Positions 18,879 through 45,996 of a stretch of 64,000 nucleotides of DNA are shown piece by piece. The notes below the pieces were generated by a model, which was not told the origin of the DNA, ran no database searches, and was given only the letters and a program-made list of their open reading frames with translations. A program made the position numbers and the translations under genes. The stretch comes from Longimicrobiales bacterium (GTDB lineage: Bacteria > Gemmatimonadota > Gemmatimonadetes > Longimicrobiales > Gaopeijiaceae). The stretch covers positions 256,001 to 320,000 of the forward strand of contig CBDFIQ010000001.1 in NCBI GenBank assembly GCA_965248195.1, given 5' to 3'. The first letter of the stretch is position 1. Every line of letters starts with the position of its first letter.

Positions 18879-20321
18879 ATGGCCTCGATAGGGCAACTCG
18901 TGCGATACGACGGCCGGGCGGCGGCGATGCTCTGCGCCCTCCTGGCGGTGGTTCCTTTCGCAGCGGACGCACAAGACCGTTATCCCGTAGATTGGGAGCC
19001 CGTCGCTGCGGAATCGATGGAGTATTTCCTGGACCTGCTGCGCACCGATACCAGCAATCCGCCCGGTAACGAATCGGAAGCCGCAAGGTACCTTCAACGA
19101 GTGCTCCAACAGGAGGGCATCGAGGCCGAACTGTTCGCACTCGACCCGACGCGCGCGAATCTGGTCGCGCGGCTTCGTGGTAACGGCACCAAGCAGCCGA
19201 TTCTGATCATGGGCCACACCGACGTCGTCGGCGTGCAGCCCGAAAATTGGTCCGTCGATCCGTTTGGTGCAGTGGCCAAGGATGGATACATCTACGGTCG
19301 CGGAGCGCTTGACGATAAGGACAACGTTACGGCGGCGTTGATGCTGATGTTGTTGCTGCGGCGCGCCGAGGTCGAGCTCGACCGGGATGTGATTTTTCTT
19401 GCCGAGGCGGGCGAAGAGGGGACGACGAGATTCGGCATCGACTACATGATCGAGCAGCATTGGGACCAGATTGCGGCTGAGTTTTGTCTCGCCGAGGGCG
19501 GAGAGACGGTGATGCGCGACGGCGTGGTAGACCACGTCAAGATCGCGACCACCGAGAAGTTTCCGATGCGGGCTCGGCTGGTTGCCCGGGGGACGGCAGG
19601 CCACGGGTCGATCCCGAGACTCGACAACGCGGTCTCGGCACTGGCGAGAGCCGTGGGGCGACTCGCCGCGTGGCAGTCGCCGCTTCGTCTGAATGAGACG
19701 ACACAAGCCTATTTTTACCGCCTGGGTGAAATCAGCGCGCCGGAGGAAGCCGCCCGTTACCAGGGCGTGCTCGACCCCGAGCAGCAGCCACGAATCGATC
19801 GCTATTTCGCCGAGCACGAGCCGCAACACTATTCCCTGTTGCGCACATCCGTCGTGCCGACGATGCTGAGTGCTGGCTTTCGCCGGAACGTGATTCCATC
19901 CGAAGCCGAGGCCACGCTCGACATCCGCGGATTGCCCGACGAGAATCCGGAGGAGTTCTTTCGTGACCTCGCGGGCGTGATCAATGATCCGAATGTCGAG
20001 ATCATCCCGGCAGAGATCAACCGGCCGGCGAGCCCGCCTTCCAGTCTCGAGACGGAGATGTTTCAGGCCTTGGAGGGTGTCACCACCCGCCTCTTTCCGA
20101 ATGCCGCGACACTGCCTGCAATGCTCAACGGAGCCACGGACATGGCACAGGTCCGCGCGCAGGGAACGCAGTGCTACGGCTTCGGCGCGGTTCGGACCGA
20201 GGAAGACATTGTTGGGGGTGGCGGGGCGCATGGTGACGACGAACGCCTCATGGAGGGCTCATTGCTGAGCCTTATTCAGTTTCTGTGGTACGCCGTCGTC
20301 GAAGTGGCCGCCAGCGAATGA
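18879..20321 (+). CDS. Secreted M20/M25/M40 family metallo-hydrolase
   Basis: NPPGNE, GHTDVV, YGRGALDDK, AGEEG, GHGS, GATD, AHGDDE motifs; signal-like N-terminus. Confidence 0.88.
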   Translation: MASIGQLVRYDGRAAAMLCALLAVVPFAADAQDRYPVDWEPVAAESMEYFLDLLRTDTSNPPGNESEAARYLQRVLQQEGIEAELFALDPTRANLVARLRGNGTKQPILIMGHTDVVGVQPENWSVDPFGAVAKDGYIYGRGALDDKDNVTAALMLMLLLRRAEVELDRDVIFLAEAGEEGTTRFGIDYMIEQHWDQIAAEFCLAEGGETVMRDGVVDHVKIATTEKFPMRARLVARGTAGHGSIPRLDNAVSALARAVGRLAAWQSPLRLNETTQAYFYRLGEISAPEEAARYQGVLDPEQQPRIDRYFAEHEPQHYSLLRTSVVPTMLSAGFRRNVIPSEAEATLDIRGLPDENPEEFFRDLAGVINDPNVEIIPAEINRPASPPSSLETEMFQALEGVTTRLFPNAATLPAMLNGATDMAQVRAQGTQCYGFGAVRTEEDIVGGGGAHGDDERLMEGSLLSLIQFLWYAVVEVAASE

Positions 20322-21706
20322 AGCGACGAGCTCCCATCGGATTGGATCGCCGAGAAGCCCTCAAGCTGGGCGCCGCCGGCCTCGGCCTTGCTGCTGTAGG
20401 AACGTCAGCCGGACGCACCATCGAGTCCCATGCGGGGACCTCCGGCCCGTCGCCGGATCTGGGCCAGGCGCCGGTGGAGCTCTTCTCGGCTCCCCCGATG
20501 GACCAGGTCCGCATCGGATTCGTGGGCGTGGGCCTCCAGGGAAGCGCGCACGTCAGGAACCTGCTAGAGATCGAGGGCTGCGTCATCCAGGCCGTGTGCG
20601 ACATCGTTCCCGAGAAGGTCGAGCGCCTCCAGGATCGGGTCGAGGAGGCCGGCTTCCCACGTCCGACAGGGTACACCCGGGGTGAGCGGGACTTCGAGCG
20701 GCTCTGCCAGGAGGAGGAGCTGGACTTGGTGTACAACGCGACTCCCTGGGAGTGGCACGTGCCCATCTGCACGTCCGCCATGGAGAATGGCAAGCATGCG
20801 GCCACGGAGGTTCCGGCGGCCTACACGCTTGAGGACTGCTGGAAGCTCGTCGAGTACGCGGAGAAGTACGAGAAGCACTGCTCCATGATGGAAAACGTCA
20901 ACTACGGACGGATGGAGATGTTTGCCTTCAACCTCGTCCGGCAGGGTTTGCTGGGCGAGATCCTGCACGCGGAGGGCGGCTACCTGCACGATCTGCGGGC
21001 CATCAAGTTCGAGGACCAGGATGAGGGGCTCTGGCGGCGGGCTCACGCCATGCAGCGGAACGGCAATCTCTACCCGACGCACGGGCTCGGCCCCATCGCC
21101 AACTGCATGGACATCAACCGAGGCGATCGGTTCGCCACCCTGGTCTCGATGAGCAGCCCCTCCAGGGGCCTCCAGGAGTGGGCGGAGACGCACTACCCGG
21201 CGGATCATCCGAAGCGGCAGGAGGCCTACGTCCTCGGCGACGTGAGCACGACCATGATCAAAACGGCGCTGGGACGCACGCTCTACGTGGGCCACGACAC
21301 CAACCTTCCCCGGCCGTACAGCCGCATCCATCAGATCCAGGGGACCAAGGGCATCTTCCAGGGATATCCGGACCGCGTCTACGTGGAGGGGGTGAGCGAA
21401 CCCCACGCTTGGGACGAGGCCGAGAAGTGGCTCGAGGAGTACGAGCATCCGCTCTGGAGAGAGATGGAAGAGCGCTCGCAGGGCGCAGGACACGGCGGCA
21501 TGGACTTCATGGAGAACTACCGCCTCATCAAGTGTCTGCGTGAGGGACTCCCCACGGACATGAACGTCTACGATGCCGTAGCGCTCAGTGCCGTGACGCC
21601 CCTGTCCGAGTGGTCCGTGGCGAACGGGAGCCGGCCCGTGGAGTTTCCGGACTTCACGCGTGGGCGGTGGCAGTCCTGGCCGGAGCTGGGTCTGGTAACG
21701 GCGTAG
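20318..21706 (+). CDS. Tat-exported GH109 (Gfo/Idh/MocA-fold, NAD+-dependent) alpha-N-acetylgalactosaminidase-like glycosidase
   Basis: ATGA overlap with the upstream gene; Tat motif DRREALK; ATPWEWH, ATEVPAA, MMENVNY, YLHDLR, GNLYPTHGLGP, PRPYSR, GHGGMDF, DFTRGRW. Confidence 0.88.
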   Translation: MKRRAPIGLDRREALKLGAAGLGLAAVGTSAGRTIESHAGTSGPSPDLGQAPVELFSAPPMDQVRIGFVGVGLQGSAHVRNLLEIEGCVIQAVCDIVPEKVERLQDRVEEAGFPRPTGYTRGERDFERLCQEEELDLVYNATPWEWHVPICTSAMENGKHAATEVPAAYTLEDCWKLVEYAEKYEKHCSMMENVNYGRMEMFAFNLVRQGLLGEILHAEGGYLHDLRAIKFEDQDEGLWRRAHAMQRNGNLYPTHGLGPIANCMDINRGDRFATLVSMSSPSRGLQEWAETHYPADHPKRQEAYVLGDVSTTMIKTALGRTLYVGHDTNLPRPYSRIHQIQGTKGIFQGYPDRVYVEGVSEPHAWDEAEKWLEEYEHPLWREMEERSQGAGHGGMDFMENYRLIKCLREGLPTDMNVYDAVALSAVTPLSEWSVANGSRPVEFPDFTRGRWQSWPELGLVTA

Positions 21707-21722
21707 CTGCGGAGACGTAGCC

Positions 21723-22940
21723 TTGGGCGAACATTCCCACGGAGCTCCGTCGGGGCTTTTCGAGGACCGGTTCGGCCACCCCGGGGCCTTCGTCGTACAA
21801 GCCCCCGGTCGTGTGAACCTCATCGGCGAGCACATCGATTACGCCCTGCTCCCTGTCCTTCCCATGGCTATCCAGCTCCGCACTACGCTGACGGTGCGGC
21901 CCCGGGAGGATCGTCACGTGCGACTGACCAACGCCGATCCATCGTACACCGACGTCGAGCTGGCACTGTCGGCGGACCTAGAGCCGGGTACGCCCCATGA
22001 CTGGGGCGACTATGCACGTGGTGTCGCACATGCACTGGTTCGCGAGTACGGGATCAGCGCCGGCGCCGATATCGCAGTGGAGTCCGACCTGCCGGTCGCC
22101 GCCGGCCTCAGCTCCTCCTCGGCCCTCTCGTGCGGCGTGGCCCTGGCGCTCCTCGCGGCGAACGGTCGCGGCATCGACCGGGTGGAGTTGGCGGAGGTCG
22201 TGGCCCGGGCAGAGCGGTATACGGGCACCCAGGGTGGCGGAATGGACCAGGCGGCCATCCTCTGCGCTCAAGCTGGGCATGCCCTCGGCGTGAGCTTCGC
22301 TCCCCTGCACATCCGTCCGTTGTCCATGCCGGAGGATTGGGTTTTCCTCGTCGCCCAAAGCGGCAGCGTGGCGGAGAAGTCCGGCCCGGCGCAGGCCACA
22401 TACAATGCCCGGACGCGCGAGTGTCGAGAGGCGCTCGTGACGGTGTGGGCCGCACTTGGGAAGGGTGAGCCGCTGGAGAGGGACTACCGCCCGCTTCTGG
22501 AGGCTGCGGATCCGGAACACCTGCTGCGAGTGGGAGGGGATGCGCTCGGGCCAATCCTTCTGGCACGATTTCGCCATACACTTTCCGAAGCGCTGCGCGT
22601 ATCGGAGGCCGAGGAGGCGTTGAGCGTGAGCGACCTGGGCACATTCGGTCGCGCCATGGACGCCTCTCACGAGAGCCTTCGGGATGATTACCAGGTCAGC
22701 ACGCCGGAGCTCGACCGCATCGTCGACCTCGCACGGGAGGCGGGCGCGGCGGGGGCGCGTCTCACCGGAGCAGGACTCGGCGGCTCGGCTCTCATCCTGT
22801 GTACGGAGGCTGCGGAGTCGGCGGTTCGGGAAGCCCTCGAAGCTGGGTACTCCAGGCAAAGGGGAGACCCATCGGGAGAAGCGGCGGTCTTCAGAGCAGC
22901 TCCCTCGGGGGGAGCCACGGTGGGGACCGCAGTGGTTTGA
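21723..22940 (+). CDS. galK: GHMP-family galactokinase-type sugar-1-kinase, GALK2 (GalNAc kinase)-like
   Basis: APGRVNLIGEHIDY, PVAAGLSSSSAL, AERYTGTQGGGMDQ, SHESLRDDYQVSTPELD, GARLTGAGLGG; TTG start. Confidence 0.85.
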   Translation: MGEHSHGAPSGLFEDRFGHPGAFVVQAPGRVNLIGEHIDYALLPVLPMAIQLRTTLTVRPREDRHVRLTNADPSYTDVELALSADLEPGTPHDWGDYARGVAHALVREYGISAGADIAVESDLPVAAGLSSSSALSCGVALALLAANGRGIDRVELAEVVARAERYTGTQGGGMDQAAILCAQAGHALGVSFAPLHIRPLSMPEDWVFLVAQSGSVAEKSGPAQATYNARTRECREALVTVWAALGKGEPLERDYRPLLEAADPEHLLRVGGDALGPILLARFRHTLSEALRVSEAEEALSVSDLGTFGRAMDASHESLRDDYQVSTPELDRIVDLAREAGAAGARLTGAGLGGSALILCTEAAESAVREALEAGYSRQRGDPSGEAAVFRAAPSGGATVGTAVV

Positions 22941-23073: not shown

Positions 23074-25719
23074 ATGAATCCGAAGCGCCTTTGCGTCCGA
23101 CTCACGCTCCTTCTGCTAGCATCAGTCATCGCCGGATCGGCGTTGGTCCCCACGCACGCCACGGGACAGCAGATCCCCTCCCCCGTGACCTTCTTCGGCT
23201 TCGAGATGGGTGCCGACCGCAAGCTCGCCCGGTGGGACAAGCTCGTGGAGTACTACAACCTCCTGGGGGAGCAGAGTCCACGCCTCGAGGTTGTCAACAT
23301 GGGGCCCACGACCATGGGTCACCCGTTCCTGGCCCTCTACCTGTCTTCTCCCGAGAACCTGGCTCGCCTCGACGAGCTCAAGCAGATCAACGCCACGCTC
23401 AGCGACCCCAGGGGAGTGCCGCAGTCGGAAATCGACCGTGCCATCTCAGAGGGGAAGGCGGTGGTGGTCCAGTCCATGTGCCTCCACTCCACCGAGGTGG
23501 CATCGGGACAGATGACCGCGGAGCTCATGTACGATCTCGTGACGCGCACCGACGAAGAGGTCATGCGCATCCTGGACAACACCATCGGCATCATGATTCC
23601 GTGCTTCAATCCCGATGGTGAGGTGATGGTCGTCGACTGGTATAACGAGACCGTCGGCACCGAGTACGAGGGAGTGGGCCCCCCGCGGCTGTACCACAAG
23701 TACATCGGCCACGACAACAATCGGGACGCGTTCATGGCCAACACGGTGGAGTCCCAGTACGGGGCCGAGATCATTTTCCGTGAGTGGGTGCCCCAAGCCT
23801 ACGTCGACCACCACCAGATGGGCGCGTATGGAGCCCGGATCTACGTACCGCCCTACGCCGAGCCGGTCCGTCCCTCGGCGGATCCCCTGGTGTGGAGGGA
23901 GATGAGTTGGTACGGAGCCCACATCGCCTATAAGGAAGAGGAGGCCGGCCGGGCTGGTGTGGTGAACGCCGCCATTTACTCCGGGTGGGGCCATTTCGGG
24001 TTCCACTGGATCACGCCCTTCCACAACATCGCGGGGATGCTCACGGAGTCGGCCAGTGCCCGTCTGGCGACACCGCTCTTCCTGCATCCCGATCAGCTCC
24101 AGGGGTCGCAGAGGGGCCTACCCGAATACGAGGAGCAGACTTCGTTCCCCAACCCCTGGCCGGGGGGCTGGTGGCGCGTGCGCGACATCGTGGAGCAGCA
24201 GAAGATCGCGGCCATCGCCACGCTGGACATCGCGGCGCGGCATCGTGAGACGGTCCTCACGAACGCGTACCTGAAGGCCACGCGGCAGACGGAGCGGGGG
24301 GCGGCGGGGAAACCGGCTGCGTTCGTGATCCCCGTCGACCAACACGACCCCCTCACTGCACAGAAGATGGTCAACAAGCTTCTAGGGCAGGGGATCGACG
24401 TGCAGCGGGCTGGCCGGGATTTCACGCACGAGGGCCGCGTATACGGAGCCGGCACCTTCGTGGTGTCCATGGCGCAGCCCAAGATGGGCGTCATCCGCTG
24501 GCTTCTGGGACGCACCTTCTATCCCGACAACTCCTACACGCGCAATCGAGACGGCAGCCCCATCCAACCCTACGACATGTCTACGGACAACATGGCGGAA
24601 TTTATGGGTGTGCGCGTGGATGCGGTCGACGAGGCCGTAGAGGCGAGGCTCACCAAGGTGTCCGCCGTCATCGAGCCCGCCGGCCGGGTAGCCGTGGGTC
24701 GGTTCGGATACGTGCTCGATGGACGACTGAACGACAGCTTCGAGGCGGTGAACTTGTTGCTCGCGGCCAACGTGGGGGTGCGGCGCGTGGATCGACCGGC
24801 GGACGAGAGCCTTCGTCCCGGTGACTTTCTGGTGGAGGCCGGTGCGCCGGCTGCGACCGTGGCCGACGTGGCCCGCCAGACGGGCGTGGACTTCGTGGCG
24901 CTCGATACCGAGGCGACGTCCGATAGCCGACCCCTGACGCAGCTCCGGATCGGGATGTACCAGCGTTACTACGGGGGCAACATGGACGAGGGATGGACGC
25001 GCTGGCTGCTGGAGGACTTCAGCTTCCCGTACGCCACCCTCATGGACGCCGAGATCATGGATGGGGACCTGCACGACGACTACGACGTGATCATCCTTCC
25101 GGCCGACGGCGTGGCGCGGATGACGGGTGAGCAGAGCGCACAGGGCGGACCTGGAGGCGGGGTTCAGACCTACCCGGAGGAGTACCGCAGCGGCTTCGGG
25201 CAGGACGGGGTGGACGCCCTGGAGGCCTTCGTGGAGAATGGCGGTACGCTGGTTACGTTTGCGGAGGCGGGAGCGCTTCCCATCGAGAAATTCGGGCTCC
25301 CCGTTCGGAACGTGAGGGAGGGGCTGTCCTCCACTGAGTTCTGGTCACCGGGCTCGACGCTGAGGGTGAACATCGACAACACGCACCCCCTGGCCTACGG
25401 CATGCCCGACCAGGGCCTGGCCACATTCCTGGGCAACAACCACGTGTACCAAATCGTCGCGACGCCACGAAACGAACGGGCCGACCGGATCGTGACGTTC
25501 GTGGATCGCGACGTCTTGCAGAGCGGGTGGCTGCTCGGGGAGGAGGTCATCACAAACAAGGCGGCCATGGTCTCAGTGGAGCACGGCCAAGGGAGGGTCG
25601 TTCTCATCGGCTTCCGTGCGCAGCACCGAGCGCAGACGCACGGGACGTTCAAGTTGCTGTTCAACACGCTCGTGGGCGACCCGGACGGGGGGGCCGATCT
25701 CGCCTTGGACGGAGGATGA
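23074..25719 (+). CDS. Secreted M14 zinc carboxypeptidase with a C-terminal glutamine-amidotransferase-like domain
   Basis: Signal peptide; LHSTE (HxxE), NPDG, HDNNRD, DHHQMG; C-terminal MDEGWTRW, DVIILP, GFRAQHRAQ. Confidence 0.85.
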   Translation: MNPKRLCVRLTLLLLASVIAGSALVPTHATGQQIPSPVTFFGFEMGADRKLARWDKLVEYYNLLGEQSPRLEVVNMGPTTMGHPFLALYLSSPENLARLDELKQINATLSDPRGVPQSEIDRAISEGKAVVVQSMCLHSTEVASGQMTAELMYDLVTRTDEEVMRILDNTIGIMIPCFNPDGEVMVVDWYNETVGTEYEGVGPPRLYHKYIGHDNNRDAFMANTVESQYGAEIIFREWVPQAYVDHHQMGAYGARIYVPPYAEPVRPSADPLVWREMSWYGAHIAYKEEEAGRAGVVNAAIYSGWGHFGFHWITPFHNIAGMLTESASARLATPLFLHPDQLQGSQRGLPEYEEQTSFPNPWPGGWWRVRDIVEQQKIAAIATLDIAARHRETVLTNAYLKATRQTERGAAGKPAAFVIPVDQHDPLTAQKMVNKLLGQGIDVQRAGRDFTHEGRVYGAGTFVVSMAQPKMGVIRWLLGRTFYPDNSYTRNRDGSPIQPYDMSTDNMAEFMGVRVDAVDEAVEARLTKVSAVIEPAGRVAVGRFGYVLDGRLNDSFEAVNLLLAANVGVRRVDRPADESLRPGDFLVEAGAPAATVADVARQTGVDFVALDTEATSDSRPLTQLRIGMYQRYYGGNMDEGWTRWLLEDFSFPYATLMDAEIMDGDLHDDYDVIILPADGVARMTGEQSAQGGPGGGVQTYPEEYRSGFGQDGVDALEAFVENGGTLVTFAEAGALPIEKFGLPVRNVREGLSSTEFWSPGSTLRVNIDNTHPLAYGMPDQGLATFLGNNHVYQIVATPRNERADRIVTFVDRDVLQSGWLLGEEVITNKAAMVSVEHGQGRVVLIGFRAQHRAQTHGTFKLLFNTLVGDPDGGADLALDGG

Positions 25720-26035: not shown

Positions 26036-27492
26036 GATGGTGTCCCGCTGACAGTTGAAGGTGGTGGCTCCGGAGAGTCTCCTTGTTAGCCTGCCTTTCT
26101 CATTTCGGCAACCGGTTCATGGTCGTCGAGGTGGGCCCTGAGCATCCAGAGCTGGTCGTAGCCGATGATCCTCCGGTAGCTCTTCTCGGTCTCCACGAAC
26201 GAGGCCGCAGCCCAGCGCAAGGCCATCGCTCCGTTCTTCCAGTTGGTCACCCTGCGGGTCTTCTGTCTTACGCCCGAGTGGGTGCTGTCGATCAGGTTGG
26301 TCGAGCCCAGGCACTTCCTCAGCCGCGGCGGGAGGCCGAGCCGGTTGATCGTGAACATCTCGCTGAGGCCTTCGCGTAGGCTGGCCGAGGCCGAGGGGTG
26401 GTCGCGCTCGAGCCATCGGGCGAGCTGCTCGAGCTTCTGCTCGCCCTGCTTCGCGTCCAGCTTCATCGCCGCCCGGAACGCCGCCTTCACCTGAGGATGC
26501 TGATCCTTCGGCAGATGACCCAGCACGTTGCGGAGCTTGTGGTTGCGGCAGCGCTGGATGGGGTGACGTTGGCCGAACACCTTCTCGATCGCCTTCCTGA
26601 GCGCTTTCGAGCCATCGATCACGAACAGCCGCCGCCTGCCCGGGTCCAGGCCGCGCTCGACCAGATCCTCTAGGAGCGCGCTGGTCACCTCGGCGTTCTC
26701 ACTCGCTCCTTCCCTCACGCCCAGCACGTGCTTCTTTCCGTCTGAGTCCACGCCTACCGCAGCAAGCACGTGGTGCGAGCCCATCTGGATCCCGTCCAGG
26801 TAGATCACCAGGAGGTCCCACGCATCCAGCCGGCGCTCCATCAGCTCCTTCAGCACGCGCTCCGAGGCCTCGACCGTCTCACGGCTCACCGCCGACTTGC
26901 TCACCCCGACCGTGTCGGCCATCTCACCGATCACACGGCCGTACTTCCGCGTGCTCACCCCCGCCATCAGGACCTCGAGCATCCGATCCGCCACGGCGCC
27001 CGGTCTCCGCATCGCTGCGTACGCCGGCACCTCGACCTCGCCACCCTCCCCGGCGCCCCGGCGCCTGAGCCGTGGCCGCTCCACACGCACCTTCCGGTCC
27101 GACAGGTAAACCACACCACCCTGCCGGCCATACCACACCGTGTCGTCTTCCGCTCGTGACCGACCTGCCTGCTTCACGCCTGCCACACCCTCGGCGCTCA
27201 TCTCCAGCACCGCTTCGATCGTCGCTCGTCCCATCACCTGGATGACTTCGTCGATCGCGACCTCCGTCTGCTCCACGAGCTCAAGCATCGGAAGCAGAAA
27301 CTGCCCCTCCCGCTTCAGGAACTCCCTGATCGCGCGCTTGTCCGCCCGATCCCTTACCTCGTACGTTCTCTTCATCGTGGTGGCTCCGTGTTGGGGTTTT
27401 TGCCTACCCGAGCCTATCGGCCCGGGACCCCCGGAGCCACCACTTCTCTTTCTCCCCTATCAGGAACCTTCAACTACGGTTGGGACAGCTTC
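26036..27492 (-). mobile_element. IS256-family insertion sequence A (1457 bp)
   Basis: Imperfect terminal inverted repeats GATGGTGTCCCGCTGACAGTTGAAGGT / GAAGCTGTCCCAACCGTAGTTGAAGGT; 8-bp target duplication ATGATGAG at 26028-26035 and 27493-27500. Confidence 0.92.
26086..27375 (-). CDS. IS256-family (Mutator-type DDE) transposase
   Basis: GVSTRK, SKSAVSR, YLDG, GKKHVLG..G.SEN, VIDGSKAL, QRCRNHK.RN, STNLID. Confidence 0.92.
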   Translation of the reverse strand: MKRTYEVRDRADKRAIREFLKREGQFLLPMLELVEQTEVAIDEVIQVMGRATIEAVLEMSAEGVAGVKQAGRSRAEDDTVWYGRQGGVVYLSDRKVRVERPRLRRRGAGEGGEVEVPAYAAMRRPGAVADRMLEVLMAGVSTRKYGRVIGEMADTVGVSKSAVSRETVEASERVLKELMERRLDAWDLLVIYLDGIQMGSHHVLAAVGVDSDGKKHVLGVREGASENAEVTSALLEDLVERGLDPGRRRLFVIDGSKALRKAIEKVFGQRHPIQRCRNHKLRNVLGHLPKDQHPQVKAAFRAAMKLDAKQGEQKLEQLARWLERDHPSASASLREGLSEMFTINRLGLPPRLRKCLGSTNLIDSTHSGVRQKTRRVTNWKNGAMALRWAAASFVETEKSYRRIIGYDQLWMLRAHLDDHEPVAEMRKAG

Positions 27493-27949: not shown

Positions 27950-29325
27950 GGTAGTGTCCCTAGATTTGTGTAAAAGCGGATAAGCTGGACAGGAGGGAAA
28001 GAAAAACGGAAGCTCCTCTGTTGTTGTTCACTGTCACATGAACCCGGGAGTCCGGGTCTGCAGAGCAGGCTCGGAACCGGAGAGGAGCTTCCGATGCAAG
28101 AGATTGTGGAGATCGGTCGGGCCACGCAAGACGAGCTACGCGATGATTTGCGCGAGCTGTTTCAAGGCGCGATCCGGCTGACGCTCGAGATGGTGCTGGA
28201 AGAGGAGCTGAAGGCCATGGTAGGTGCACGCCGCTTCGAGCGGGTGGGAAGCCGGAAGGACCATAGGAACGGCACATACCTGAGGCGGCTGCTGACGAGC
28301 CTGGGGCAGATCGAGGTCGCCATGCCCCGGAGCCGGGACAACGGTTCGCCGGCCGACGTGATCGGCCGCTACCAGCGCAGGAGCCCCGAGCTCGACGAGA
28401 TGATGGTCGAGGCGTATGTGAGCGGCGTGTCACAGCGCAAGATGGGCGACGTCACCGAGGCGCTGATGGGCGAGCGTGTTGGGCGCTCGACGGTGAGTCG
28501 TGTGGCAAAACGGCTCGACGAGGCCGTGGAAGGGCTGCGCCGTGCGCCGATCGAGGGGCCTCACCCCTATCTGTACCTGGACGCCACGTTCTTGGACGCC
28601 CGCTGGGCCCGCAAAGTCGAGAACGTGAGTGCGCTCGTGGCGTATGCAGTGGGCCCTGAGGGTCACCGACGGCTCCTGGCCGTCACGCTGGGCGCTGAGG
28701 AGTCGCAGCAGAGCTGGTCGGAGCTCCTCGAGCAACTCCAGGACCGCGGCCTCGGCGGTGTCGAGCTCGTGATCGCCGATGAGCACGCAGGCCTGGCAGC
28801 TGCGGTCCGCCGCTTCCTGCCCGAGGCACGCCGTCAGAGGTGTACGGTCCATCTGCAGCGTAATGTGGGGGCGAGGGTCCCCCACCGCCTACGCAAGCGC
28901 GTGGCGCGTGAGGTCTCGGTGATCTTCCAGACATCCGGACTCGCCGAGGCGAAGAAGCTCCTGGGCGAGTTCGGCGCACGCTGGAAGAAGGAGCTGCCCG
29001 AGGCCGTGGAGGTCCTGGAGCGGGGCTTCGGGGCAGCGACGCAGTTCTACGCGTTCCCCGAGGCGCACTGGCCCCGGCTGCGTACCACCAACAGCCTCGA
29101 GCGGCTGCACGGCGAGATCAAACGCAGGATCAAGGCCGCCGGCGCCTTCCCGGACCGGGCCAGCGCCCTCAGGCTCATCACGGCCGTCGCACTCAGGACC
29201 ACACACGTCTGGGGCGACCGGCGTTACCTCGACCTCTCACTCCTCCAGAAACAGGAGGTCGCCCAAGCAGCCTAGCCGAAGGCGAGGAGCTTCCTCCGCT
29301 TTTACACACAAATCGGGACTTGACC
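27950..29325 (+). mobile_element. IS256-family insertion sequence B (1376 bp)
   Basis: Terminal inverted repeats GGTAGTGTCCCTAGATTTGTGTAAAAGCGGA / GGTCAAGTCCCGATTTGTGTGTAAAAGCGGA; 8-bp target duplication ATTCCGCC at 27942-27949 and 29326-29333. Confidence 0.93.
28094..29275 (+). CDS. IS256-family transposase
   Basis: HRNG, MPRSR, YLYLDA, VIADEHAGL, QRCTVHLQRN, RTTNSLERLHGEIKRR, FPDRAS. Confidence 0.95.
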   Translation: MQEIVEIGRATQDELRDDLRELFQGAIRLTLEMVLEEELKAMVGARRFERVGSRKDHRNGTYLRRLLTSLGQIEVAMPRSRDNGSPADVIGRYQRRSPELDEMMVEAYVSGVSQRKMGDVTEALMGERVGRSTVSRVAKRLDEAVEGLRRAPIEGPHPYLYLDATFLDARWARKVENVSALVAYAVGPEGHRRLLAVTLGAEESQQSWSELLEQLQDRGLGGVELVIADEHAGLAAAVRRFLPEARRQRCTVHLQRNVGARVPHRLRKRVAREVSVIFQTSGLAEAKKLLGEFGARWKKELPEAVEVLERGFGAATQFYAFPEAHWPRLRTTNSLERLHGEIKRRIKAAGAFPDRASALRLITAVALRTTHVWGDRRYLDLSLLQKQEVAQAA

Positions 29326-31097
29326 ATTCCGCCCATTTGCCGCCTCTGTCGCCATGACGTCGCCGAGGACGACGATCTCCAGGCGATCCAGGGAATCGAC
29401 TTCAGGATTCAGTTCGACTTCCGCGACGATCTCGAGCCGGCCACCTCTGGTGATCCGGATCTCCGAGCCCATGGGCTGCCCATTCACGCTCAACTCGAGA
29501 AACGGCCCGTTCGTCACGTACACGTTCCCCCTGCTGTACGCGTCGAACCAGGCATCGACACTGAATGGTCCGTCTATCTTGGCGTAGTTACGAACAACTC
29601 CCGGCAGATCCATGAACGGGAAGTCCGATCCGGCCATCGGAAGGATCTTGTAACCAAGGTTGAGGAAGTCGTACCAGGGCTCGAAAGCGAGCCGCCCGTT
29701 CTGGAGGACTTCAATGAAGTCGACGATCCCAAAGGGCACGTCGAGGGCCAAGCCGCGTCTCCCGTTGAATAGCTGCCCGTGATGGGCGTATCCCGATATG
29801 CCCCCCTGACGACTCACCTGCTCAAACGCTTCGTGATACGCGAAGTAATCGTCTGTCGGAAGGTGGACGGGCGCCACCAGGTTGTAGTGCAGCGTGTGGC
29901 CGTGCTGGACGGTACGCGGATCTTCTTGCGAGGATACGATCACGTAGCCGTCCCGTTCGAACTGTCCTTCGCCGCCCCACGCAGGTTGCCTGAAATGTGT
30001 TCGCGACAGATTTCCCATTTGGGTCAAATTCATCAGACGCACGTCCTCCGCGGCCCCATATGCCCAAACGTCGTCGTCTTGAACGACATCCCGACCGATG
30101 TGCACGTGCCCGTCGCTCGAATACCACCCTCGTCCGGCCAAGTCGGCGTAGCGCTCGAGCGCAACATCAATGTTTGTGGTTTGGTCGGGTGTGATTTCGA
30201 CCCGGCTCCGATACGCCTGGTACTCGTAACCCCGTGTTACGACGATCTCATACGAGCCAGTGGGCACCTCCGCCTCATACTCGCCGTTGACGTAGAATGC
30301 CTGACGGTTCTCGGATGGCCAGAAAGCATGTTCGTTGACCCGAAGGCGTCGCACCTGGTCCCCGAATCGAGTGACGAGCACTGCCTGATCAGAAGGAAGC
30401 GGCAGCCGTCCGGTAGAATCGTAAAGTCCGACGCGGGCTGGTATCGAGCTGCCGGACTCGGCATCTCTGAGCCGCAAGCGGATTCGGCCCATGCGCGCGG
30501 GCGGCGAGGTGGTTCCGCTGCGAGTCAACTCGATGCCGCAGAGCGCCACTCCCCCGCGGCTGGACACGGCGATGTCAATTCCTCTGCTACCTTGTCCGGC
30601 GAACCGAGCTCGTTCCAGGGTGACAGTTACCTGCCGCAGTGCGGAACCCGGCTGGACCTGAACTTCCTGGCTGCCTACACCTTCCCCTCCGTTCGCATCC
30701 CAGTAGACCGTGAACGGCGCAGTGTAGGTCGGTGCGTAGGTGAGTGTGAGTGTCACGGACTCGTCGATGTCGAACGCATAGTCGTCGTCGACATCAAAGC
30801 CGAGCGCACCGCCGATTGCGCAAAGTCGGTTCCCTACCGAGCGCATCATCAACGTTGACCGGAACGCGCCGGATCCCAGCTCGGGGTAGCTAAGGGCGTA
30901 ACTCTGGGCTATCCGTGGCATGGTCCACTGAATAACCTCAACGTAGATGGGGTCATGGCCGTAGAGCGGGACGGGGGCAGCACTAGCAGGCAAGTAACCG
31001 CTAAGCGCCAGTAGAATGGACCGCATGACCACAGCCACTGGAGGCAGGCGAACTCTACGCATCGCGTTTGATCTCCGACTTTAGGTATTTTCGCACA

Positions 31098-31388: not shown

Positions 31389-33461
31389 TCAGACGGCATG
31401 ACGCCGCTGCCGATCCCACTGCGGCGACAACACTTCGAGGGTTGCCCAGGCTTCGAGGTCTCCCATCGGATCGACGGGCTCGGACAGGAGATCCTGCAGC
31501 ATCTGACGCTGCTCCTGCACAAGGCTTGGCACGTCTTCCGTCTTCCAGAACGGCTGGCCATCAACCACGACGTAGATAGGCGCGCTGTGCGCCAGCGCGA
31601 CGTACGGACGCTGCTGTCCCTGGCCCGGCTGCGCCTCGTCCTGCTCACCGACCACGCGGATCGCAACCCACATGCTGCGTTCGGCCACCAGCTCCGTCTG
31701 CAACTCGAGACGCTCCTGACCGTTCCCTTCGGCCGTCGCGACCACGTTTCCGTGCACCACCAACTCCAGCTGTCCCATCGCCTGAAAGTCCGGATTTAGC
31801 CGGGCGATGGCGGCGACGTCGAGCGTCGTGCCGCGTGCCACTCGGAGCTCTCTACCCATGCTCTCCCCGTTGATCGTGAAGTCCAGAAGCGGACCATTCG
31901 TCACGAACGCGTGTCCCGCACGGAACGATCGATACCACTCGTCTGCATCGAAGGCTCCGTCCAGTTGGACGTAGTAGCGCTCAACCCCGGGGAGCGACGG
32001 GCCGAAGTACGGGTAGTCCGACCCGGCCGATGGGGTCACCTTGAAGCCCAGATTGAGAAACGGATACCAGTTCTCGACCCTCAGCCGGCCCCCTTGCAGC
32101 ACCTCGATGAAGTCGACCAAGTCGAACGGCACGTCGAGCGCCAACCCTCGCGGGCCGTTGAATAACGCCCCGTAGTGTGCGTAGCCGGACACGCCTCCCT
32201 GGCTGTGCGACTCCTCGAACACTCTGTTGTAGGAAAAGTACTGATCGGCGGATAAATCGATCCACTCTGGGTTGTTAAGGTGGATGGTATGGCCCCGCTG
32301 GGTGGTCCGTGGCCCCTCCTGTCCTGAAACGATCATGTGCCCGTCGCGCAGGAACCTGCCGGCCTCACCCCACGCAGGCTGCCGATAATACGTTGTCACG
32401 ATGTTGCCCATCTCGAGAAGATTGCCGACGTGGATATCCTCTGCGGCGACCATCCCCCAAACGTTCATGTCGTTCACTTGATCCCGCGCGAGGTGTAGGT
32501 GATCGTCGCCCGAGTACCAGCCCCGCTCCGGCTGGTTCGCGTACCGCTGCATGGATATCGTGACCGTTGTCGTCTGATTCGGAACGATATCGACGCTGCT
32601 CTGGTGGAGGCGGTACTCCAATCCCTTGCTGGCCACGAGCTCGTACGATCCAGCAGGCACGTCTGCTTCGTAGCTCCCATCAACGTAGAAAATCTGACGG
32701 TTCGCTGATGGCCACATAATGCGACCTGATACCCACAACAGGCGGGTCTCATCCGAATAACGATGCATGAGAAGCGATTCGCTCGATGGCAGCGGCGTCC
32801 GACCCGTCGCATCGTAGAGGCCCAGCCGCGCCGGGACCGGCGCACCCGTCTGCCCGTCCACTACGGTGATTCTGATCGTGCCGCTCTGAGACGGAGGCGG
32901 CGTCGTGCCGCTGCGTGTCACGCTCAGGTCGCATAGGGTGATCCCTCCACGTGCACCGATGGCAAGATCCGTGTCGAGAATGCCGAGTCCGGCGAACCGC
33001 GTGCGGTCCAAAGAAACAGTGACCTCTCGGAGCGTCGCGCCAGGCTCCGGAGTGATGGCCGTCCCGCCGTATCCCTCTCCACTGTTACGGTCCCACGCGA
33101 CCCTGAAGGGCTGTGTGAACGCCGGCGCATAGGTAACCGTCACCTCGACCGGTTCATCGATGTCGAAGGCGTAGTCGTCGTCCACATCGAACGCGAACAG
33201 ATCGCCGAACAGGCACGACATTCCGTCGACGGTGGTCAGAGCCGTCGCAACCTTACTGCCGTTCAGACCGAGCTCAGACCTGTTGACCCCCAGGACACGC
33301 GTGATATTCTGTTTCGGCCACGACAGGACCTCCACCCGCCGCGCCTCCTCACCATGCGCGAGCAGACCCCCCGCCACCATCATTCCGCTCATCGCTACCA
33401 CGACAAGAGTCGCCCAGATACGGCCCCGACCGTACCGGTTCACTAATCCGATCGATCTCAT
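31389..33461 (-). CDS. Secreted CehA/McbA-family (PHP-like) metallohydrolase, paralog of 25964..31062; C-terminus probably truncated
   Basis: Signal peptide; shared N-domain FDVDDDYAFDIDE; WYSGDDHLH, GYAH, GSDYP, VTNGPLL, AHSAPIYV; stops shortly after DPMGDLEAW whereas the paralog continues. Confidence 0.8.
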   Translation of the reverse strand: MRSIGLVNRYGRGRIWATLVVVAMSGMMVAGGLLAHGEEARRVEVLSWPKQNITRVLGVNRSELGLNGSKVATALTTVDGMSCLFGDLFAFDVDDDYAFDIDEPVEVTVTYAPAFTQPFRVAWDRNSGEGYGGTAITPEPGATLREVTVSLDRTRFAGLGILDTDLAIGARGGITLCDLSVTRSGTTPPPSQSGTIRITVVDGQTGAPVPARLGLYDATGRTPLPSSESLLMHRYSDETRLLWVSGRIMWPSANRQIFYVDGSYEADVPAGSYELVASKGLEYRLHQSSVDIVPNQTTTVTISMQRYANQPERGWYSGDDHLHLARDQVNDMNVWGMVAAEDIHVGNLLEMGNIVTTYYRQPAWGEAGRFLRDGHMIVSGQEGPRTTQRGHTIHLNNPEWIDLSADQYFSYNRVFEESHSQGGVSGYAHYGALFNGPRGLALDVPFDLVDFIEVLQGGRLRVENWYPFLNLGFKVTPSAGSDYPYFGPSLPGVERYYVQLDGAFDADEWYRSFRAGHAFVTNGPLLDFTINGESMGRELRVARGTTLDVAAIARLNPDFQAMGQLELVVHGNVVATAEGNGQERLELQTELVAERSMWVAIRVVGEQDEAQPGQGQQRPYVALAHSAPIYVVVDGQPFWKTEDVPSLVQEQRQMLQDLLSEPVDPMGDLEAWATLEVLSPQWDRQRRHAV

Positions 33462-43027: not shown

Positions 43028-45043
43028 ATGACCTGCAAGCTTCCCGCGCACCAGCGCACCCCGTGGACAGTTGCTTACCACTTCTTGGCACTCCCGCTCG
43101 CTGCGGGCGTGCTTGGTCTGGCCGGCTGCGCCTCTGGCTCTGCCCCTTCGGGGACAGCCTCCGTGGCGCCCTCAGTGACGCTCGCCCGCACGGCAGCAGA
43201 GACTGCGCCGAGCCCCGACCCCCGTGTCGGCCTCGAGGCGGGGCTCTTCGATGCCGAAGAGGCGATATGGAACTTGAGCTTGATGTCGGCAACGCCACCC
43301 CCGCAGGACTTCGTGGGCATGACGAACTCCGACCTGGCCTTCAAGGATGACTACGCCATTCAGGGCAACTACAACGGCATCCAGGTGTGGAGCATCGAGG
43401 ATCCCCGACAGCCGTTGCTGGTGACGGGCTTTGTCTGCCCGGCGTCGCAAAGCGACGTCTCGGTCTACGGCGACCTTCTGTTCGTGTCCGGTGAGGGACT
43501 CGGCGGCCGGCTCGACTGTGGCACCGAGGGAGTCGACGAGTCCGTGAGCCCGGACCGCCTTCGTGGCATCCGGATCTTCGACATCAGCGACATCCGCAAC
43601 CCCGAGTACATCGCCAACGTGCAGACCTGCCGCGGGTCGCACACGCACACGGTGCTCAAGGACCCGAACGACGACCAGAACGTGTACGTCTACGTCTCCG
43701 GATCCTCGATGGTGCGTCCTGCCGAGGAGCTGGCCGGATGCTCCGGCGCTCCGTTGGACGAGGACCCCAATTCCGCGCTCTTTCGGATTGAGGTCATCAG
43801 AGTGCCGCTCGCCAATCCCGAGCAAGCTGCCATCGTGAGCTCGCCCCGGATCTTCACCGGCCTCGTCGCGCCCCCGGTCCATGGCCTGGCGCCTGACGAC
43901 CTCGCCGCCCTCGAGGAGGCGCGGGCGCGGGGTGCTTTCATCGCCGAATTCCCCGATGAACCGCAGATATTGCCGGACCCGCAGGTCGCGAACCTCCTAG
44001 CACAAGTCGTGGCCCGGCGCGGGGGCAGCGGCGCCGCGACGGCGGCGGACACCGTCGCCCTCCGCGCTTTCCTCGACGAGATAGTCGCTCAGCAGGCCGA
44101 CGCCGGTCCCGGCGCCGGTCCTACGCAGTGCCACGACATCACGGTGTACCCGGCGATTGGAGTGGCCGGCGGCGCTTGCGGCGGCTACGGGTTCCTCATC
44201 GACATCAGCGATCCCATCAACCCGGAGCGTATCGGGGCCGTCAGCGACGAGAACTTCGCCTACTGGCACTCGGCGACGTTCAACAACGACGGCACCAAAG
44301 TTCTCTTCACGGACGAGTGGGGAGGCGGAGGCGGGCCGAAGTGCCGCGCTAGCGATCCCACAGAGTGGGGTGCCGACGCGATCTTCACACTCGAAAACGG
44401 GCAGATGGAGTTCCAGAGTTACTACAAACTGCCCGCCCCGCAGACGCCAGAGGAGAACTGCGTGGCGCACAACGGCTCGCTGATCCCCATCCCGGGCCGC
44501 GACGTGATGGTACAGGGGTGGTACCAAGGAGGCATCTCGGTCTTCGACTGGACCGATCCAGGGAACCCGGTCGAGATCGCGTTCCACGACCGTGGGCCGC
44601 TGGACGCGACCCGCATGAGAATGGGCGGGAGCTGGTCGGTCTACTGGTACAACGGCGTGATCGTGAGCTCGGAGATCGCCCGTGGACTCGACATCTTCGA
44701 GCTCACGCCGAGCGCTCTCCTGTCGCAGAATGAGATCGACGCCGCCAAGTCGGTCAGGCTCGACTACCTGAACGCGCAGGGCCAGCCCCAGTTCGTCTGG
44801 CCGGCCACCTTCGCCCTCGCGGGAGCGTACCTGGACCAGCTCGAGCGGTCCGAAGGGCTGCCGGCGTCGCGGATCGAGTCCACGCGGCGGGAGCTCGCTG
44901 CTGCCGAGAGCGCCTCGGGGGCCGCGCGGCGGGGGGCGCTCGCCAGGATGGCCGACGAGCTGTCGGGTGAGGCCAGTGAGTCGCGCGACTCCGCCAGGGT
45001 GCGGATGCTGTCGGCGACCCTGCGGGAATTGGGGTCTCCGTGA
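43028..45043 (+). CDS. LVIVD-repeat beta-propeller lipoprotein
   Basis: Lipobox LAGC; NSDLAF, GIRIFDIS, QTCRGSHTHT, QCHDIT, YWHSATFNNDGTKV, ENCVAHNG, WYQGGISV. Confidence 0.8.
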   Translation: MTCKLPAHQRTPWTVAYHFLALPLAAGVLGLAGCASGSAPSGTASVAPSVTLARTAAETAPSPDPRVGLEAGLFDAEEAIWNLSLMSATPPPQDFVGMTNSDLAFKDDYAIQGNYNGIQVWSIEDPRQPLLVTGFVCPASQSDVSVYGDLLFVSGEGLGGRLDCGTEGVDESVSPDRLRGIRIFDISDIRNPEYIANVQTCRGSHTHTVLKDPNDDQNVYVYVSGSSMVRPAEELAGCSGAPLDEDPNSALFRIEVIRVPLANPEQAAIVSSPRIFTGLVAPPVHGLAPDDLAALEEARARGAFIAEFPDEPQILPDPQVANLLAQVVARRGGSGAATAADTVALRAFLDEIVAQQADAGPGAGPTQCHDITVYPAIGVAGGACGGYGFLIDISDPINPERIGAVSDENFAYWHSATFNNDGTKVLFTDEWGGGGGPKCRASDPTEWGADAIFTLENGQMEFQSYYKLPAPQTPEENCVAHNGSLIPIPGRDVMVQGWYQGGISVFDWTDPGNPVEIAFHDRGPLDATRMRMGGSWSVYWYNGVIVSSEIARGLDIFELTPSALLSQNEIDAAKSVRLDYLNAQGQPQFVWPATFALAGAYLDQLERSEGLPASRIESTRRELAAAESASGAARRGALARMADELSGEASESRDSARVRMLSATLRELGSP

Positions 45044-45996
45044 ACATCGGTTTTCATCTCAGGAGTAGCCAACTCTTGGGTCCAACGGGCCGCCTGTTCG
45101 CCGTGAGTCTTGGAGTGATGCCATGGATTGCGGCCTGCGCTGGCGGCAACGCCGCTAAGAAGGTCCTCGTCATCGGACTCGACGGCATACGTGTCGACAT
45201 TCTCGCTGAGACTACCACACCCAACATCGACAGACTGATTGCCGAGGGTTTCTTCGACGACCAGGCCCGCACCAATGTGCGGACCGTGAGCGGCCCCGGG
45301 TGGTCGAGCATGCTCATCGGGGCACGCACCGACAAACACCTTGTGAGCAGCAACAACTTCACCGGGAACGACTACGCAACCTACCCCGATTTCCTCACCC
45401 GACTCGAGCAGGTGGATTCGAGCTTCAACACGTTCGCGGTCGTCGATTGGGCGCCACTGGGCACGACCGCATCAGGCGGTCCGTTGTTCGGCGACGCCAT
45501 CGACGAGCTGCTCTTCTTCAACGCTGGTGCAGAGGGATACGCCCGGGCGGATTCGCTGTCGGTCGATGCCGCCGTGGTGCGGCTTGAGACTGGGGATATC
45601 GACGCGGCGTTCGTCTATATCGGTGACACCGATCAAGTGGCACATGCCACCAGTACGTACGCGCCGGAATACAAGACCGCCATCGAGGTGGCAGACGTGC
45701 TCGTCGGTCGGCTCGTTGCCGCGATCCAAGCCCGGCCTACCTACGCTGACGAAGACTGGCTCATTCTAATGTGTACCGACCACGGGCGAACCGACGAGGG
45801 GGGACACGGCGGAGACTCGGACAAAGAGCGGACAATTTTCTTCCTCGCGCACGGTCCTTCGGTTGTTCGAGAACCGATCGAGACTACACCCAACATTGTC
45901 GACATTGCCGTGACCGCATTGACACACCTTGGAGTGGAGATCGATCCAGCGTGGAATCTGGATGGAAGGTCAGTCGCCTTGGGAGGTGAGAGGTGA
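45040..45996 (+). CDS. Alkaline-phosphatase superfamily (type I phosphodiesterase/nucleotide pyrophosphatase-like) lipoprotein
   Basis: VIGLDG.R.D, TVSGPGWSS, DQVAH, TDHG, GHGG, LDGRS; GTGA overlap with the upstream gene. Confidence 0.85.
   Translation: MNIGFHLRSSQLLGPTGRLFAVSLGVMPWIAACAGGNAAKKVLVIGLDGIRVDILAETTTPNIDRLIAEGFFDDQARTNVRTVSGPGWSSMLIGARTDKHLVSSNNFTGNDYATYPDFLTRLEQVDSSFNTFAVVDWAPLGTTASGGPLFGDAIDELLFFNAGAEGYARADSLSVDAAVVRLETGDIDAAFVYIGDTDQVAHATSTYAPEYKTAIEVADVLVGRLVAAIQARPTYADEDWLILMCTDHGRTDEGGHGGDSDKERTIFFLAHGPSVVREPIETTPNIVDIAVTALTHLGVEIDPAWNLDGRSVALGGER

Follow-up and report, generated by a model that had tools for sequence, protein, structure and literature searches.

Whether bacteria can salvage N-acetylgalactosamine (GalNAc) by coupling a family GH109 glycosidase to a C1 kinase of the human GALK2 type is the question raised by two adjacent genes in a Longimicrobiales genome (GenBank assembly GCA_965248195.1). 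The genes lie in a stretch of 64,000 nucleotides, positions 256,001 to 320,000 of contig CBDFIQ010000001.1, referred to here as the window. An initial annotation made from the DNA letters had proposed such a route, noting that a GALK2-like kinase starts 16 bp after a GH109 gene, and the open reading frames (ORFs) at 20318-21706 and 21723-22940 bear out this gap. The comparisons described here make it fairly probable that the pair provides the release and phosphorylation steps of GalNAc salvage via GalNAc-1-phosphate. Direct observation extends to the identity, linkage and distribution of the genes and to the clade and motif of the kinase; the features concerned are the following:

20318..21706, plus strand: GH109 NAD+-dependent N-acetylgalactosaminidase, 462 aa (PF21252 at 214 bits, and PF01408)
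20318..20434, plus strand: putative twin-arginine (Tat) signal peptide of GH109, end approximate (DRREALK and a hydrophobic stretch)
21491..21493, plus strand: His392 in the GAGHGG loop of GH109, invariant in 8/8 aligned rows, with an identical loop in 2ixa
21723..22940, plus strand: GALK2-clade GHMP sugar-1-kinase, 405 aa, TTG start, short form (PF10509, PF00288, PF08544)
22233..22250, plus strand: GGGMDQ motif of the kinase with Gly171 and Asp175, invariant in 37/37 rows

The kinase translation contains EHIDY, LTNADPSY, GLSSSSAL and RVELAEVVARAERYTGTQGGGMDQ, as first read, and its assignment to the GALK2 type over GalK or GALK1 holds up. Human GALK2 is its best solved match by sequence, profile and fold alike, with PDB 2a2c at 208 bits and the remaining galactokinases at no more than 152, and a reciprocal profile test with a reversed control also places it with GALK2; all four PRK galactokinase models score far under their cut-offs. 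The protein is without the helical insertion between the lobes that GALK2, Gal1 and long bacterial forms of the clade have, the alignment to 2a2c skipping chain residues 272-347. Its galactose-binding signature (PF10509, 72 bits) is intact, which points to a galacto configuration of the substrate. No other GalK-like gene was found in the 4.86-Mb genome (91.8% complete). Near-identical kinases occur in other assemblies (95% and 91%), and the closest named loci, at 69-76% identity, belong to Longimicrobiales and Gemmatimonadota metagenome-assembled genomes; sequence sources label the homologues 'galactokinase'.

A tree of 76 of 117 prepared rows (LG+G4, bootstraps not settled), which leaves out human GALK1, human GALK2 and S. 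cerevisiae Gal1, separates 13 canonical GalK rows from all others at 100/100 and places the window kinase within a 17-row subclade (98/97) in which the rows that carry a name come from Gemmatimonadota and Acidobacteriota. The 20 eukaryotic rows form one clade (100/99) of animal GALK2 by name, plant GALK, amoebozoans, Pachysolen Gal1 and unnamed rows, and with the tree rooted on canonical GalK this clade nests inside the longer bacterial forms (100/96). The window kinase falls outside the eukaryotic subclade, so the tree gives no orthology with animal GALK2. The description 'eukaryote-like' should not imply a eukaryotic origin: the kinase belongs to a broad bacterial clade, with the eukaryotic enzymes nested inside under that rooting. 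Membership of the GALK2/Gal1/plant GALK clade of GHMP kinases is supported by these comparisons, with the caveat of an approximately unbiased (AU) test given below: the phylogenetic check that had been called for places the kinase outside canonical GalK in the tree, but that test did not reject joining them. One Pachysolen galactokinase record (P0216) has its N-terminal part duplicated, likely an annotation or assembly error.

The motifs differ in what they tell. The residue four positions before the catalytic Asp is Gly in 50/50 named animal GALK2 and Ser in 14/14 named plant GALK; it is Gly in the window kinase and in 80/80 related loci, and among 150 clade representatives it is Gly in 127, Ser in 19, Thr in 2 and Ala in 1, with 1 unmatched. 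Elsewhere the site holds Asn (Gal1/Gal3), Cys (GALK1) or Thr (B. infantis GalK). The EH-motif takes mixed forms in the 80 loci (EHTDY 35, EHIDY 28, EHVDY 6, DHTDY 6, DHIDY 2, unmatched 3), and EHIDY also occurs in yeast Gal1 and plant GALK, so it is not diagnostic. GGGMD, not EHIDY, is the informative motif; as the initial annotation had cautioned, yeast Gal1 shares some of the motifs. Gly171 is likely the specificity position and Asp175 likely the catalytic residue. The GGGMD glycine reportedly admits the N-acetyl group, and plant GALK reportedly gains GalNAc activity through S206G (Thoden and Holden 2005; Yang et al. 2009).

The identity of the glycosidase is plain from its C-terminal GH109 domain (the PF21252 cut-off being 27 bits), its Rossmann NAD-binding domain (PF01408) and its PDB matches (6t2b, 377 bits; 2ixa, 309 bits), and it is the only full-length GH109 gene in the genome. 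Its Tat export, also claimed at the outset, stands in part: a DRREALK motif recognised by eye and a hydrophobic stretch are present and a Tat signal is likely, but TIGR01409 scores 15.6 bits, just below the cut-off of 16.7. His392 is likely the catalytic acid/base, judging by the title of Teze et al. 2020.

The surroundings of the kinase in relatives, sampled as 80 genome loci and 80 metagenome loci (some of the latter repeating genome loci), show that its more tightly linked partners are a nucleotidyltransferase and an SSS symporter. Near the kinase in the genome loci are the SSS symporter (45), the nucleotidyltransferase (42), GH109 (22), an NPP-family gene (12), LacZ (7) and a NagB-deacetylase fusion (5); in the 47 loci whose flanks extend 3 kb or more upstream and 5 kb or more downstream, the transferase was found in 35, SSS in 33 and GH109 in 12. 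The metagenome loci give GH109 28, SSS 31, transferase 26, LacZ 10 and M14 2. Of the 22 genome loci with GH109, 9 have it immediately upstream of the kinase and in the same orientation. The main linked transferase matches NTP_transferase models and PDB 3pnn ('conserved domain protein', 270 bits), and is called 3PNN-type here. Transferase-kinase fusions of two types occur in 3/150 clade representatives (P0143, P0154, P0172) and at L234:8244-10391, and in genus g76 the transferase and kinase matches lie in one open frame; in P0147 an HTH domain precedes the kinase. NagB-deacetylase fusions adjoin the kinase in L031, L032, L053, L073 and L076 (PRK02122, 790 bits for L053) and phosphofructokinase lies near it in L062, L070, L071 and L074, which suggests a catabolic branch in some relatives.

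From these parts a route can be proposed, for which we infer the GH109 export, all substrates, the SSS cargo and the UDP-sugar end point. GH109, predicted to be Tat-exported, would act in the periplasm to release GalNAc from glycans, the SSS symporter would import it, the kinase would convert it to GalNAc-1-phosphate, and the nucleotidyltransferase, acting as a pyrophosphorylase, would make UDP-GalNAc for glycan synthesis or epimerisation.

The distribution of these genes bears on the route. Among 61 near relatives the kinase occurs in 15 (2 as partial matches), accompanied by GH109 in 13 and by the transferase in 14, the exception being the window genome; strong galT matches are confined to 6 of the near relatives, each with canonical GalK, and one of the 15 kinase genomes has a weak 48-bit match. 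In a wider sample of 251 Gemmatimonadota-phylum genomes of at least 90% completeness, a full kinase match (at least 398 bits) is found in 61. The co-occurrence with GH109 that the initial annotation had asked about is clear, GH109 being present in 55/61 kinase genomes vs 59/179 others and the transferase in 51/61 vs 30/179, with 11 split or partial kinase cases excluded from both comparisons.

Genomes with GH109 or the transferase and no such kinase revealed two substitutes. One is a NahK homologue adjoining the same transferase and SSS families; the other is a divergent GHMP family accompanied by a transferase of its own, by GH109 and, in many cases, by SSS. The GALK2-clade kinase, NahK and the third GHMP type are found in 73, 24 and 62 of the 251 genomes with zero overlap, where overlaps of 7.0, 18.0 and 5.9 would be expected by chance. 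The GALK2-clade count is from among the matches listed, 109 weaker matches lying outside, and partial copies may be missed; the 73 include 12 split copies assigned from scores (G193 being the one inspected), and the third-type count includes the unpublished G208, on which no claim depends alone. Family f4 holds all three types (17, 24 and 21 of 114 genomes), with about 11 overlaps expected and none observed. One of the three is present in 120/125 GH109 genomes, GH109 occurs in 5/92 genomes without any of them, and 24/24 NahK genomes carry the same transferase. That the kinase is never in the same genome as NahK supports a likely role as a GalNAc-1-kinase, as had been suggested from its motifs. 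Some genomes hold the kinase plus a lower-scoring, canonical-range GalK match (e.g. G104, G164, G260). NahK-like kinases stand next to the 3PNN-type transferase in family f4 at L237:6888-7958, L239:9380-10459, L243:8113-9168 and L225:8944-10005. The third GHMP family (L093:11120-12406, L094:5117-6418, L095:8306-9664, L230-L233, L240-L242) has GKHTDY and TxGGSxDH motifs and a best PDB match of just 70 bits; it is so far undescribed and is separate from the GALK2-clade kinase and NahK.

In the window genome itself the arrangement has changed. Two peptidase genes enclose the pair:

18879..20321, plus strand: M20 peptidase, upstream local neighbour outside the conserved unit (PF01546)
23074..25719, plus strand: M14 carboxypeptidase, downstream local neighbour outside the conserved unit (PF00246)

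The M20 stop codon and the GH109 start overlap (ATGA), and TonB_C, M20 and M14 genes are all present in the flanks by Pfam profile matches. The suggestion that these flanks indicate glycopeptide or mucin-type substrates is not supported, since M20, M14 and tonB are near the kinase in 0/80 genome loci and M20 and tonB in 0/80 metagenome loci, where M14 reaches 2/80. In L001 and L002 the kinase stands between acnA and an SSS gene; in the window genome these flanks are joined at C2:1247697-1255641 without the pair, which is on contig C1 between the two peptidases and has therefore likely been relocated. C2 also holds the SSS orthologue, which shares 83% identity with the one in L004. Inspection by eye points to an IS3-like element close to this SSS gene (C2:1256865-1258342), and two transposase-like ORFs (IS256-like by eye) lie a few kb downstream of the pair, at window 26086-27375 (minus strand) and 28094-29275 (plus strand). 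Further along the window are two adjacent, similar ORFs in which a metallohydrolase-like DGH/DHLH motif was recognised by eye (29302-31062 and 31389-33461, both minus strand) and, 22 kb off the kinase, an NPP/phosphodiesterase-like gene (45040-45996) 58% identical to the NPP family that adjoins the kinase in 12/80 loci. Outside the window, C1:1071378-1073597 holds 17 tRNA genes in 2.2 kb.

Several partners expected of other routes were sought in the 91.8% complete genome. The initial annotation had noted no galT or galE next to the kinase; genome-wide, galT was not found (its control matched in 6/14) and galE gave nothing above cut-off, two GalE-like SDR proteins scoring 179 and 167 bits, both under it. 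The genome also yielded no nagA or nagB, no match to a NahK query and no canonical glmU (best TIGR01173 score 85 bits vs a cut-off of 367); it has one ROK kinase. Because nagA, nagB and galT were not found, biosynthetic reuse of GalNAc is more likely here than catabolism. The 3PNN-type transferase was likewise not found, so the last step needs another enzyme or an unassembled gene. The likeliest stand-in is a transferase with hexapeptide repeats at C1:1312188-1313183, RmlA-long/archaeal-GlmU-like (rmlA_long 195 bits, Arch_glmU 190 bits, both under cut-off), which may supply UDP-HexNAc; a similar gene is directly upstream of GH109 in L230 and L231.

Release by GH109 followed by C1 phosphorylation is not in itself new. 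Ndeh et al. 2025 (PMC11992087) describe, in the part of the paper available, a Bacteroides thetaiotaomicron polysaccharide utilisation locus (BT4240-50, operon BT4240-43) in which a GH109 GalNAcase is linked to a sugar kinase, as in the window pair; the kinase, BT4240, is cytoplasmic and of the APH family, prefers GalNAc over GlcNAc about 275-fold and phosphorylates at O1, which was shown for GlcNAc and inferred for GalNAc. The route first proposed for the window had thus already been published, with a NahK-fold kinase in place of the GALK2-clade enzyme. BT4240 has the APH/NahK fold whereas the window kinase is a GHMP protein; the transporter there is of the MFS family, in contrast to the SSS symporter in the module of the window kinase's relatives; the locus is a SusC/D-M60 mucin type that supports growth on GalNAc, and that part of the paper mentions no nucleotidyltransferase for BT4240-50. 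Unlike that locus, the window genome has no NahK match, and its M20/M14/tonB flanks are unconserved. Bifidobacterium NahK (PDB 4ocu, 4wh1), an N-acetylhexosamine 1-kinase by PDB name, has homologues that fill the kinase slot in other Gemmatimonadota, but differs in fold from the window kinase and co-occurs with it in 0/24 genomes.

Human GalNAc salvage runs through GALK2 and UAP1 (PMC5487050), and the inferred logic of the bacterial module, from sugar to 1-phosphate to UDP-sugar, would be the same. Human GALK2 (PDB 2a2c/2a2d) shares clade, fold and GGGMDQ with the window kinase, which in contrast is bacterial, 405 aa long and without the helical insertion, and the transferases linked to the bacterial kinase belong to the 3PNN or NTP_transferase types rather than the UDPGP family (PF01704 had no match, though its control matched nowhere either). 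Yeast Gal1/Gal3 and plant GALK share the large clade, EHIDY, the LxNAD motif and GGMDQ with the window kinase, but are galactose enzymes by annotation with Asn, Thr or Ser in place of its Gly. Canonical bacterial GalK and human GALK1 share the GHMP fold and galactose-binding signature, but differ in their CGIMDQ-type motif and galT/galE linkage and, by the tree, in clade. Among further sources, a 2025 review (PMC12118421) lists phosphotransferase system and AgaK routes for bacterial GalNAc use, and Akkermansia Amuc_0969 is treated as a galactokinase (PMC13313206, PMC7459334). GALK2 is among the gene names listed in an anammox phylogenomics paper (PMC9387917), and the JGI name of the bacterial clade member P0287 is N-acetylgalactosamine kinase, so a GalNAc-kinase label already exists in automatic annotation. 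The literature searched (main texts, few subscription journals) holds no description of the GH109/kinase/SSS/transferase module.

A number of points weigh against GalNAc salvage by this pair. The same literature holds no assayed bacterial kinase of the GALK2 clade, the portions seen of PMC9875253, PMC3938481 and PMC12269599 included. The structural margin of GALK2 over GALK1 is small, the kinase narrowly passes the galactokinase equivalog TIGR00131 (238.1 vs a cut-off of 226.65), the tree's bootstraps are unsettled, and in the AU test forcing the window kinase and L001 into canonical GalK costs 39 log-likelihood units and is not rejected (p 0.083). The specificity role of Gly171 is putative, and the 'animal GALK2' sequence names are annotations. 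Shared ancestry among the genomes makes the counts look more independent than they are; GH109 occurs in only 11/24 NahK genomes; and the SSS orthologue is in 11/11 same-genus genomes with the kinase in only 2, so SSS may carry something else, which makes the GalNAc assignment weaker. The LacZ-type beta-galactosidase neighbours (4 of the 7 genome loci are without GH109) and the missing 3PNN-type transferase count on the same side. That this is an ordinary Leloir GalK beside GH109 by chance is nonetheless very improbable: TIGR00131, the 'galactokinase' names and the AU result are consistent with it, but the reciprocal profile test and tree, the failure to find galT or a galE above cut-off, and the co-occurrence pattern with GH109 and the other kinase types all argue otherwise.

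A GalT-independent salvage by a kinase acting chiefly on galactose, or on both Gal and GalNAc, with the linked pyrophosphorylase making UDP-Gal directly, is rather unlikely. The galactose enzymes of the clade (Gal1, plant GALK), the LacZ-type genes of both samples (7/80 and 10/80), the plant-like Ser in 19/150 representatives and the standing of the kinase as the genome's sole GalK-like gene, passing TIGR00131, speak for it; yet the window kinase carries Gly in place of Ser, Asn or Cys, its clade coexists with lower-scoring, canonical-range GalK matches in G104, G164 and G260, and it excludes NahK, a type whose member BT4240 phosphorylated GalNAc and GlcNAc but none of the other sugars tested (PMC11992087). 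The enzymes might also be as described in a module that is breaking up in this lineage, the relocated pair being a partial relic that ends at GalNAc-1-phosphate. The joined flanks on C2, the missing transferase, the 9/11 same-genus genomes with neither kinase nor GH109, and the absence of the transferase from the L001 locus and of GH109 from the L002 locus fit this reading, which is unlikely given that neither ORF is disrupted and every conserved residue is kept, near-identical kinases exist elsewhere, a general sugar-1-phosphate nucleotidyltransferase is present, with its counterpart upstream of GH109 in L230 and L231, and the genome is incomplete. Less likely still is another 2-substituted hexose as substrate, e.g. 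GalN, GlcNAc or a modified GalNAc of bacterial or animal glycans: NPP/phosphodiesterase-family (12/80) and NagB-deacetylase fusion (5/80) neighbours recur, BT4240 phosphorylates GlcNAc too and the B. longum enzyme is described as handling both sugars equally (PMC11992087), but the PF10509 signature is intact and both solved GH109 relatives are GalNAcases.

GalNAc salvage via GalNAc-1-phosphate can tentatively be extended to a wider scheme, which we regard as possible but doubtful as a whole. Bacteria would salvage GalNAc to UDP-GalNAc on a common chassis of GH109, SSS and nucleotidyltransferase with three mutually exclusive 1-kinases; the 3PNN family would be the missing bacterial GalNAc-1-P uridylyltransferase; and animal GALK2, plant GALK and yeast Gal1 would descend from a bacterial GalNAc-kinase clade, plant and yeast galactose specificity arising later by loss of one glycine. 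The surprise in the salvage route is moderate, as its chemistry and pathway logic are already known. If true, it would mean that many bacterial proteins of one large clade, at present annotated as galactokinases, act as GalNAc-1-kinases; the 3PNN-type transferase and the third GHMP kinase, both orphan families, would gain candidate functions, and UDP-GalNAc synthesis could draw on soluble kinases or kinase-transferase fusions as candidate enzymes. It would also suggest that the eukaryotic GALK2/Gal1 lineage came from bacteria, and would change the prediction of GalNAc use in environmental genomes, the module kinase types being present in 159/251 Gemmatimonadota-phylum genomes.

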